DNA from: Sporopachydermia quercuum
Taxonomy: Eukaryota
Direction: 5' to 3'
Assembly (NCBI GenBank): GCA_001599295.1
Contig: BCGN01000004.1
Span: 1,551,676-1,615,675, forward strand
DNA: 64,000 nucleotides
Shown here: in pieces, positions 61,721 to 64,000 of the stretch
Position numbering within the stretch: position 1 is the stretch's first letter
Layout of the letters: the number at the start of each line of letters is the position of its first letter
Program-made: the position numbers and the translations under genes
Notes under the pieces: model-generated
The model's database searches: none
What the model saw: only the letters and a program-made list of their open reading frames with translations
Told to the model about the DNA's origin: nothing

Positions 61721-62351
61721 ATGCCTAAGATAAGTATTTTATTTGATAATGATTGATTTATATTAGATGGTTGAATTACGTGGAAAACAAAAATTTATCT
61801 GTAACATTGGTATTAACATATTGGTTGCTTTACTATTTCTGCGATTACTGTCAAGTGTTTCTCACACACGATTCGAGAAGTGTCAGGAAAGCTCATAGTA
61901 TTGGGAAGAACCATGTGAAACTAGTGAGTGATTATTATGAAGGTACGTTTGAATGTTATTAAATGTGGGATTTACAATGTAGAATATTTTAATAGAGTAA
62001 TGCATACTAACTTTTATTGCAGCGCGAGCTAAAGAATTGGGTTTACTACAGAGTTCTGTTATTTTCCAGGCGGGAGAAGATCAAGATATCTCGGTACAGA
62101 AGTATAATTTGGGCGCACCTGGCCTCTCAACAGGACATAAGAAGATACACAGAGGAAAATTCAATCGAAATAACAAGTTTGCGCCAAAAGAACAAGAAAA
62201 ACCGGATGATCCTTATGAGCTTCTGAAAACTAGAGTTCTTCCTCCTCCCCCTCCATTGGTTGTTGGAGGAACTTCAATCCCATTACCTACACCACAGTAT
62301 GCATACGTTCCACCAGTGATCGAGTTGAAGAATGTCAAATATCCTGAGTAG
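61721..62351 (+). CDS. YHC1: U1 snRNP protein C (U1-C), ~148 aa, three exons
   Basis: Exon 1 61721-61729 (MPK); exon 2 61834-61942 ([36 protein letters not shown], the U1-C zinc finger); exon 3 62023-62351 (Pro-rich LPPPPPL tail). Intron 2, 61943-62022, is GTACGT..TACTAAC..CAG. Intron 1 is AT-AC. Confidence 0.9.
61730..61833 (+). other. Non-canonical AT-AC intron (U2-type signals) in YHC1
   Basis: AAG|ATAAGTATTT ... TATTAAC (61811-61817) ATATTGGTTGCTTTAC|TATTTCTGC; removal gives exactly MPK-YFCDYC. Confidence 0.75.

Positions 62352-63183: not shown

Positions 63184-64000
<817 letters not shown>

Follow-up and report, generated by a model that had tools for sequence, protein, structure and literature searches.

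We analysed a 64,000-nucleotide (nt) stretch of contig BCGN01000004.1, the whole of which is called the window below, and found on its forward strand a gene for U1-C (YHC1), the protein that clamps the small nuclear ribonucleoprotein (snRNP) U1 onto 5′ splice sites, whose first intron appears to be a natural AT-AC intron with U2-type signals. The gene has three exons. Exon 1 (61721..61729, + strand) consists of ATG (61721-23), CCT (61724-26) and AAG (61727-29), encoding Met-Pro-Lys, and is followed by intron 1 (61730..61833, +), which is 104 nt long, in phase 0 and of 23% G+C. Exon 2 (61834..61942, +) opens at 61834 with TAT TTC TGC GAT TAC TGT and encodes the U1-C zinc finger (YFCDYC...LTHDS.SVRK.H..G.NH...DYYE) together with the first base of the next codon; intron 2 (61943..62022, +) is a canonical phase 1 intron of 80 nt, with GTACGT, TACTAAC (62005-11) and a final CAG; and exon 3 (62023..62351, +) encodes a Pro-rich, poorly conserved C-terminal part that ends at a TAG stop (62349-51). 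When the exons are joined by coordinates they form an intact coding sequence of 447 nt, that is, 148 codons plus stop. The window as a whole has long open reading frames (ORFs), few introns, GTAAGT, GTATGT and GTACGT donors, TACTAAC-type branch sites and 36.5% G+C, and from this gene structure and the affinities of Yhc1 we place the organism among the budding yeasts (Saccharomycotina).

Intron 1 differs from the local GT introns at its termini. The MPK codons adjoin ATAAGT (61730-35) directly, and the 5′ splice site (ATAAGTAT, 61730..61737, +) is the local GTAAGT donor with A at +1. GTAAGT is the donor of the intron in GSP1, which also supplies CACTAAC and TAG as local canonical signals, and GTACGT is that of YHC1 intron 2. 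A candidate branch site, TATTAAC (61811..61817, +), is a one-base variant of the local TACTAAC and CACTAAC, and may serve as the branch point through the A at 61816, which lies 17 nt from the end of the intron. The intron closes with AC (61832..61833, +) in place of YAG, within TTTAC (61829-33) and in the context TTGCTTTAC/TAT, where a slash marks a splice junction here and below. ATGCCNAARATAAGT is found a single time in the window as a pattern, where 100 shuffles give an expectation of 0.01. An earlier note on this DNA had reported the positions of exon 1, the donor, TATTAAC, TTTAC and the start of the finger, and all of these are correct on direct check. Its claim that no AG lies between the branch point and the first Cys codon holds because 61730-61840 contains just two AG dinucleotides, one at 61733, within ATAAGT, and one at 61765. 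Likewise, the window sequence confirms its claims that the zinc-finger frame has TGA 61750-52 as its nearest upstream stop with no ATG after it, and that the unspliced ATG frame ends after 11 codons at TGA 61754-56.

The U1-C family provides an independent view of where the finger should begin. Excision of 61730-61833 restores the start MPK/YFCDYC, which the earlier note had described as typical of U1-C and which, with intron 2 also removed, heads the intact 148-codon frame; indeed, the layout of the family (M-x-K/R, two aromatics, Cys at residue 6) is obtained in the window only after this excision. Exon 2, which contains no Met, matches Pfam zf-U1 (PF06220) on its own with an E value of 1.2e-17 and 63.8 bits (cut-off 22) over profile positions 4-38 of 38, whereas in full-length yeast Yhc1 proteins residues 1-38 fall on positions 1-38; exon 2 is therefore short of exactly three N-terminal residues. 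A HMMER scan with exon 2 returned 665 homologues at E<=1e-3. Among 248 fetched homologues, those of a later search included, 152 start at M1 with the first Cys as residue 6, and a further 26 contain the same five residues within a longer read-through ORF; MPK is the commonest start, being found in 51 of the 80 proteins with the finger motif from residue 4 (first 150 matches). From residue 1 onward, the spliced product can be aligned with the Yhc1 proteins of Nadsonia, Ascoidea, Wickerhamomyces and Saccharomycopsis, and these alignments continue across the intron 2 junction, which backs that junction as well. Pfam gave no match for exon 3, and word-index protein searches gave no homologue for exon 3 or for the read-through ORF 61753-61959.

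We next consider whether the finger could be reached by a more conventional path, from another start or exon through a GT-AG or GC-AG intron, from a non-AUG start, or as part of an N-terminally extended U1-C. Every ATG from 60900 was combined with each GT or GC donor and each AG acceptor with which the frame stays open as far as the finger. Nine formal routes exist, all of them through the AG at 61765-66, but each prepends at least 24 unrelated residues to a finger whose start, in most homologues, is residue 4, none has a good donor (GTAAGA is the best), no CTAAC-type branch site precedes 61766, and the exact MPK codons abut ATAAGT. Since all nine routes are unfit, AT-AC excision would be the only way to a normal U1-C. 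An upstream exon or a different GT-AG junction, which the earlier note had raised as a way to overturn its proposal, thus finds no plausible route in the window, and we regard any such gene model as very unlikely.

To place intron 1 in a wider context, metagenome contigs were scanned with an alignment of U1-C fingers, and the loci discussed here are the best 80 of 416 tblastn-confirmed stretches; one additional locus, L081, came from a separate scan of prokaryote genome contigs and stands outside the 80. In 62 of the 80 there is no intron between MPK and the first Cys. The other 18 carry one, with GT-AG ends in 15, GC-AG ends in one (L025) and AT-AC ends in two (L001 and L063), so that with the window and L081 added there are four AT-AC introns among 20 intron-bearing loci. 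The earlier note had proposed looking for AT...AC ends at related YHC1 loci, and they are present at the same site in L001 and one base further on in L063 and L081.

L001 is a yeast-like but diverged locus on a 10.3-kb contig. Its finger is 72% identical to that of the window, its C-terminal part is long, Asn/Gln-rich and unalignable with the window's, and it is without the second intron. At the same phase 0 site it has an AT-AC intron of 65 nt (1436-1500), which reads ATG CCT AAG/ATAAGTATTC...ACTAAC...ATCAC/TAT TTC TGT or, with longer flanks, ATG CCT AAG/ATAAGTATTCC ... ACTAAC ... CCCAGATCAC/TAT TTC TGT. The nine-base donor ATAAGTATT is common to the window and L001, and the L001 branch site ACTAAC is placed equivalently, its branch A being 13 nt from the end of the intron. 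The product is intact at 286 residues (3 + 283 counted from the first Cys). Only 42 nt of the two DNAs align, at 85.7% identity, covering an A-rich leader, ATG, CCT, AAG and ATAAGTATT, and the matched ends have therefore survived much divergence. The first ~30 nt of the two introns (window 61730-61760, L001:1436-1465) can also be aligned past the donor hexamer, as ATAAGTATT..A.TTGAT..T..TT, and the remainder cannot; this likeness may be chance, as both are AT-rich.

A second version of the intron is found in loci of the filamentous-fungus type, one base later and in phase 1 (ATG CCN AAR T/ ... /TC TTC TGC). L063, of filamentous-ascomycete (Pezizomycotina) type and 1045 nt long, reads AAA T/ATAAGTCAG ... 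TACTGAC ... CAACTAC/TC TTC, with an AT-AC intron of 50 nt (L063:41-90) whose donor is ATAAGT. L081, also of Pezizomycotina type, is arranged as ATG CCG AAA T/ATAAGT ... GCTGAC ... GATGCAC/TCTTCT/GTAGGG ... CCCAG/GT GAT TAT TGC, that is, an AT-AC intron (1385-1440), a 6-nt micro-exon TCTTCT (1441-46) and a GT-AG intron (1447-98); with both introns out, MPKFFCDYC is restored. The ATAAGT hexamer is at the donors of the window, L001, L063 and L081, the last four bases of the four introns are TTAC, TCAC, CTAC and GCAC, respectively, and none of them has an AG usable for a GT-AG alternative, apart from a nested one in L001. The AT-AC intron is best read as recurrent in ascomycete U1-C genes, and on this sequence comparison the AT-AC state is old and stable, being common to a diverged yeast and paralleled in filamentous ascomycetes. 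As a separate matter, L081 lies on a 52-kb contig filed under a metagenome-assembled genome labelled Polyangiales bacterium and is an intron-bearing fungal U1-C gene, so it is probably eukaryotic contamination of that assembly. L025 (about 1430-1500) has its GC-AG intron, AAA T/GCAAGA ... CCAG/TC, at the same phase 1 site, and three kinds of termini thus occur at one position among ascomycetes.

The databases offer a second, independent sample: many "proteins" of this family there are ORF calls, or flawed gene models, that run across the intron, and their residues can be used to decode its ends. A G-type 5′ end appears as MPKCK or C[QRL]NVS (...AAR T/GTAAG) and an A-type 5′ end as MPKYK, MPKYE or C[QR]NIS (...AAR T/ATAAG or ATGAG). 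For the 3′ end, before FCDYC a V stands for G/TC and an L or H for C/TC or C/AC, and before a micro-exon SS or SF a Q stands for CAG and an H or Y for CAC or TAC. Decoded from codons in this way, with third positions invisible, all eight ORFs with an A-type 5′ end and a legible 3′ end have a C-type 3′ end (P0028, 35, 55, 58, 70, 128, 144 and 240), and all 14 with a G-type 5′ end have a G-type 3′ end (P0020, 24, 32, 66, 76, 85, 94, 98, 100, 153, 154, 157, 160 and 232). P0144 is counted as an A/C case without a settled exact gene model, and P0155 (Penicillium capsulatum) is ambiguous, with an A-type 5′ end and an unclear 3′ end, and belongs to neither tally. The DNA of L063 and L081 confirms both read-through patterns. 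The named sources of the A/C type are the Dothideomycetes Aureobasidium melanogenum, Microthyrium microscopicum, Lineolata rhizophorae and "Dothideomycetidae sp. 11243". The micro-exon layout of L081 is also seen in read-through ORFs with HS[SF]VG (P0128, 167, 223, 226, 240 and 244), P0232 is a GT-AG version of it (Q-SS-VN), and annotated proteins that start MPKCDYC (P0123 and P0231) seem to skip the micro-exon.

These comparisons bear on whether the ends could be an assembly or sequencing error that hides a true GT and AG. The assembly is imperfect, as the window carries 46 isolated single N bases between 1582 and 59765 (~1 per 1.4 kb), which may be ambiguity codes at heterozygous or low-quality sites. 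There is, however, no N beyond 59765, two matched changes would be required, three independent contigs of other organisms have matched AT...AC ends in the same gene (the same ends in L001, one base away in L063 and L081), and the two ends of the intron are of matching type in all 22 of the read-through ORFs. The earlier note's argument that two matched changes are unlikely to be sequencing errors is borne out, and we give error virtually no chance. That the locus is a decaying or non-functional copy, with a working YHC1 elsewhere, is also very improbable: all three exons are open, the family's invariant residues and the zinc-finger ligands are kept (C3, C6, H21 and H27 of exon 2 sit in invariant alignment columns), and the same architecture recurs in L001 with an intact product.

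The termini also invite comparison with introns of the minor spliceosome. The U12 branch consensus is TCCTTAAC, located 10-15 nt from the 3′ end. Intron 1 resembles U12-type AT-AC introns in its terminal dinucleotides, and TATTAAC shares TTAAC with that consensus. It has neither a ATATCCTT donor, the window having ATAAGTAT as the earlier note had rightly remarked, nor a TCCTTAAC branch site at the expected distance, as the branch region of the window is GTATTAAC with its branch A 17 nt from the end; the branch region of L001, AAACTAAC, contains a plain ACTAAC. Rfam and tRNA scans of the window gave no match, and no small nuclear RNA (snRNA) of any kind, which says little on U12 machinery. Yeasts, the lineage of this gene among them, are reported to be without the minor spliceosome (PMC5029451). 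A U12-type intron is thus hardly credible here, only slightly less remote than an error in the sequence. On the evidence given with each, we rejected an error in the sequence, models with an upstream exon, a U12-type intron and a pseudogene.

Several observations do weigh against a simple AT-AC reading, and should be set out together. TATTAAC departs by one base from the local consensus branch site, and the splice itself, with the junction ATGCCTAAG/TATTTCTGC, is inferred. The yeast introns are in phase 0 and those of filamentous fungi in phase 1, one base apart, so that the two need not share an ancestor. In L001, a nested in-frame GT-AG route (ATAA/GTATTC ... CCCAG/ATCAC) would add three residues, and the annotated Yhc1p of Blastobotrys (Trichomonascus) vanleenenianus (P0016) begins MPKIRYYTCDYC, which fits such a route; Pfam aligns that protein from residue 5 only. 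The hint filter of Augustus probably keeps canonical introns only by default, and hence the B. vanleenenianus model may be a work-around or real. The genome annotation of T. vanleenenianus combined Augustus, RNA-seq intron hints and manual curation (PMC13130702), and the YHC1 locus tag was not found in 7 supplementary text files of that paper. The nested route in L001, and perhaps in B. vanleenenianus, lends some support to a different gene model and could be alternative splicing or an annotation work-around, but it depends on an AG some 5 nt ahead of the AC, where the window has GC, and the window is thus unable to use it. Taking these points together with the ends, the donor, the related contigs and the absence of a GT-AG alternative, on which the earlier note's proposal of a U2-type AT-AC intron in U1-C/YHC1 now stands, we consider it highly probable that intron 1 is a genuine natural U2-type ("type II") AT-AC spliceosomal intron, located after the third codon.

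A mechanism for the splicing of such an intron can be proposed. The 5′ end of yeast U1 snRNA would pair with AAG/AUAAGUAU at all positions from -2 to +8 except +1 (nine of ten), and this unusually long complementarity could compensate for the A-C mismatch at +1. U2 would pair with UAUUAAC. In the ligation of the exons, the A at the first position and the C at the last would form a non-Watson-Crick pair, as G and G normally do, so that AC, and not AG, would be the sole competent 3′ end. The product would be a normal 148-residue U1-C, and transcripts that keep the intron would stop after 11 codons. Because a change of either end alone would block the second step, the AT-AC state would, at the least, be kept. 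Published work supports the AT-AC reading: when exons are ligated, the two terminal nucleotides of the intron come together in a non-Watson-Crick pair, where A-C is able to take the place of G-G (PMC11585973), an engineered AT-AC intron is spliced in vivo in S. cerevisiae, and the U2-type AT-AC introns of metazoans follow a strong /ATAAGT consensus (both PMC5029451).

Introns of this kind are known and very rare. The survey by Sheth et al. (2006) counted 24 among 608,562 U2-type introns of five animal and plant species and mentioned fungal cases, in xylanase genes, as hypotheses only (PMC1557818). Metazoan type II introns, such as those of human SCN4A and SCN5A, have the same AT-AC ends with a U2-type donor and are conserved across species (PMC1557818). 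In contrast to them, the YHC1 intron is in Ascomycota thought to be without a minor spliceosome, has TACTAAC-like branch signals and recurs in one gene, that for a U1 snRNP protein. A double mutant of the S. cerevisiae actin intron was reportedly described by Parker and Siliciano in 1993. Such an actin intron, with G1 changed to A and the last G to C, carries the same pair of changes and is spliced by the yeast major spliceosome via the first/last interaction, as cited in PMC5029451 and PMC11585973. Whereas that intron is a laboratory construct, the YHC1 intron is natural and apparently obligatory, in a presumably essential gene. Another endogenous AT-AC splice of budding yeast is that of Gould et al. 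(2016, PMC5029451), an intron nested within the RPL30 intron of S. cerevisiae; before it, according to that paper, an endogenous AT-AC intron was unreported in yeast. The RPL30 event affects 1-2% of transcripts, is non-productive and has a 5′ site unlike ATAAGT (PMC5029451), whereas the AT-AC splice of YHC1 has a perfect ATAAGT and would be the only route to the protein. Searches of the open-access full-text literature turned up no account of an AT-AC intron in U1-C/YHC1, nor any of a constitutive or obligatory one in budding yeasts.

Splicing chemistry has its reference system in budding yeasts, where the A-C first/last pair is known from engineered mutants and a single rare cryptic event. 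An AT-AC intron that is natural and obligatory, in a gene that is presumably essential, would mean that the major spliceosome uses A-C pairing in the wild, and has probably done so over long evolutionary times in lineages without the minor spliceosome. As the kind of intron is already known, what is notable is its place, conservation and recurrence: it belongs to the gene whose product clamps U1 onto 5′ splice sites, and distant fungi have it there too. Such genes are missed or distorted by standard gene callers, with annotated starts such as MPKCDYC or MPKIRYYTCDYC, so that the annotation of U1-C is probably wrong in many fungal genomes.

The location of the intron raises the further idea, put forward in the earlier note and an addition to the AT-AC reading, of an autoregulatory device in which a slow, mismatched AT-AC intron ties U1-C output to the activity of U1 snRNP or U1-C, with unspliced transcripts removed by nonsense-mediated decay. 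The idea gains circumstantial support from the occurrence of the same rare intron type in one gene in two ascomycete subphyla, in 4 of 20 loci as against the published 24 of 608,562 (PMC1557818), and from the premature stop that retention brings (TGA 61754-56, after 11 codons). U1-C contacts a 5′ splice site only through hydrogen bonds to the backbone from -2 to +3 and stabilises mismatched sites, including those mismatched at +1, as shown by Kondo et al. (PMC4383343). Human cells are known to cross-regulate proteins of the U1 snRNP by splicing, namely U1C and U1-70K (PMC3798272), and in that case, as in the feedback of U11-48K and 65K (PMC5473595), a gene for a 5′-splice-site-recognition protein may depend on a splicing decision; those systems use alternative exons or enhancers and not non-canonical ends, whereas regulation of YHC1 is only proposed.

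L063 is of interest in this connection, as it keeps the AT-AC intron, while its frame runs on from the first Cys for 184 codons without interruption. Some short contigs are spliced copies of genomic ones (L079 of L066 and L054 of L053, with two introns removed each, at 96-100% identity), and L063 looks like a transcript because its size and naming series are as in these. It is possibly an intron-retaining mRNA. On the other hand, L063 could be genomic, since genomic loci of the L013 group have intron 1 only. No spliced same-species partner of L063 was found among the 80 loci, the best being of 83% identity. Other points also speak against autoregulation. U1-C aiding its own mismatched 5′ splice site would make a positive loop, not a homeostatic one. 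Conservation needs no regulatory role, for the GT-AC and AT-AG intermediates are defective, and an AT-AC pair would thus be evolutionarily locked. AT-AC ends are in general more conserved than GC-AG ends (survey in PMC7072748), and many fungi have GT-AG ends or no intron at this site (none in the 62 of 80 loci mentioned above). We therefore regard the autoregulatory device as doubtful, if worth keeping in mind. Its fullest form is, if anything, a little more doubtful: there, the AT-AC first intron of U1-C would be an ancient, selection-maintained feature of Ascomycota, the +1 mismatch would make U1-C production a read-out of functional U1 snRNP, given that U1-C stabilises mismatched duplexes of U1 and 5′ splice site, retention with its early stop would be the off state, and a 6-nt micro-exon set between the AT-AC intron and a GT-AG intron would be an elaboration of the device in some Dothideomycetes.

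Two further features of the window may be recorded. Within exon 2, a second good donor, GTGAGT, is found at 61924-61929, 19 nt upstream of the intron 2 donor; its use would remove VSDYYE and shift the frame, and this 5′ splice site may be an alternative, unproductive one. Downstream of YHC1, the GSP1/Ran gene (window 63220-64000) has an intron that splits the P-loop (GGTGK/TTFVKRH), with GTAAGT at 63256, a CACTAAC and a TAG ending at 63501.

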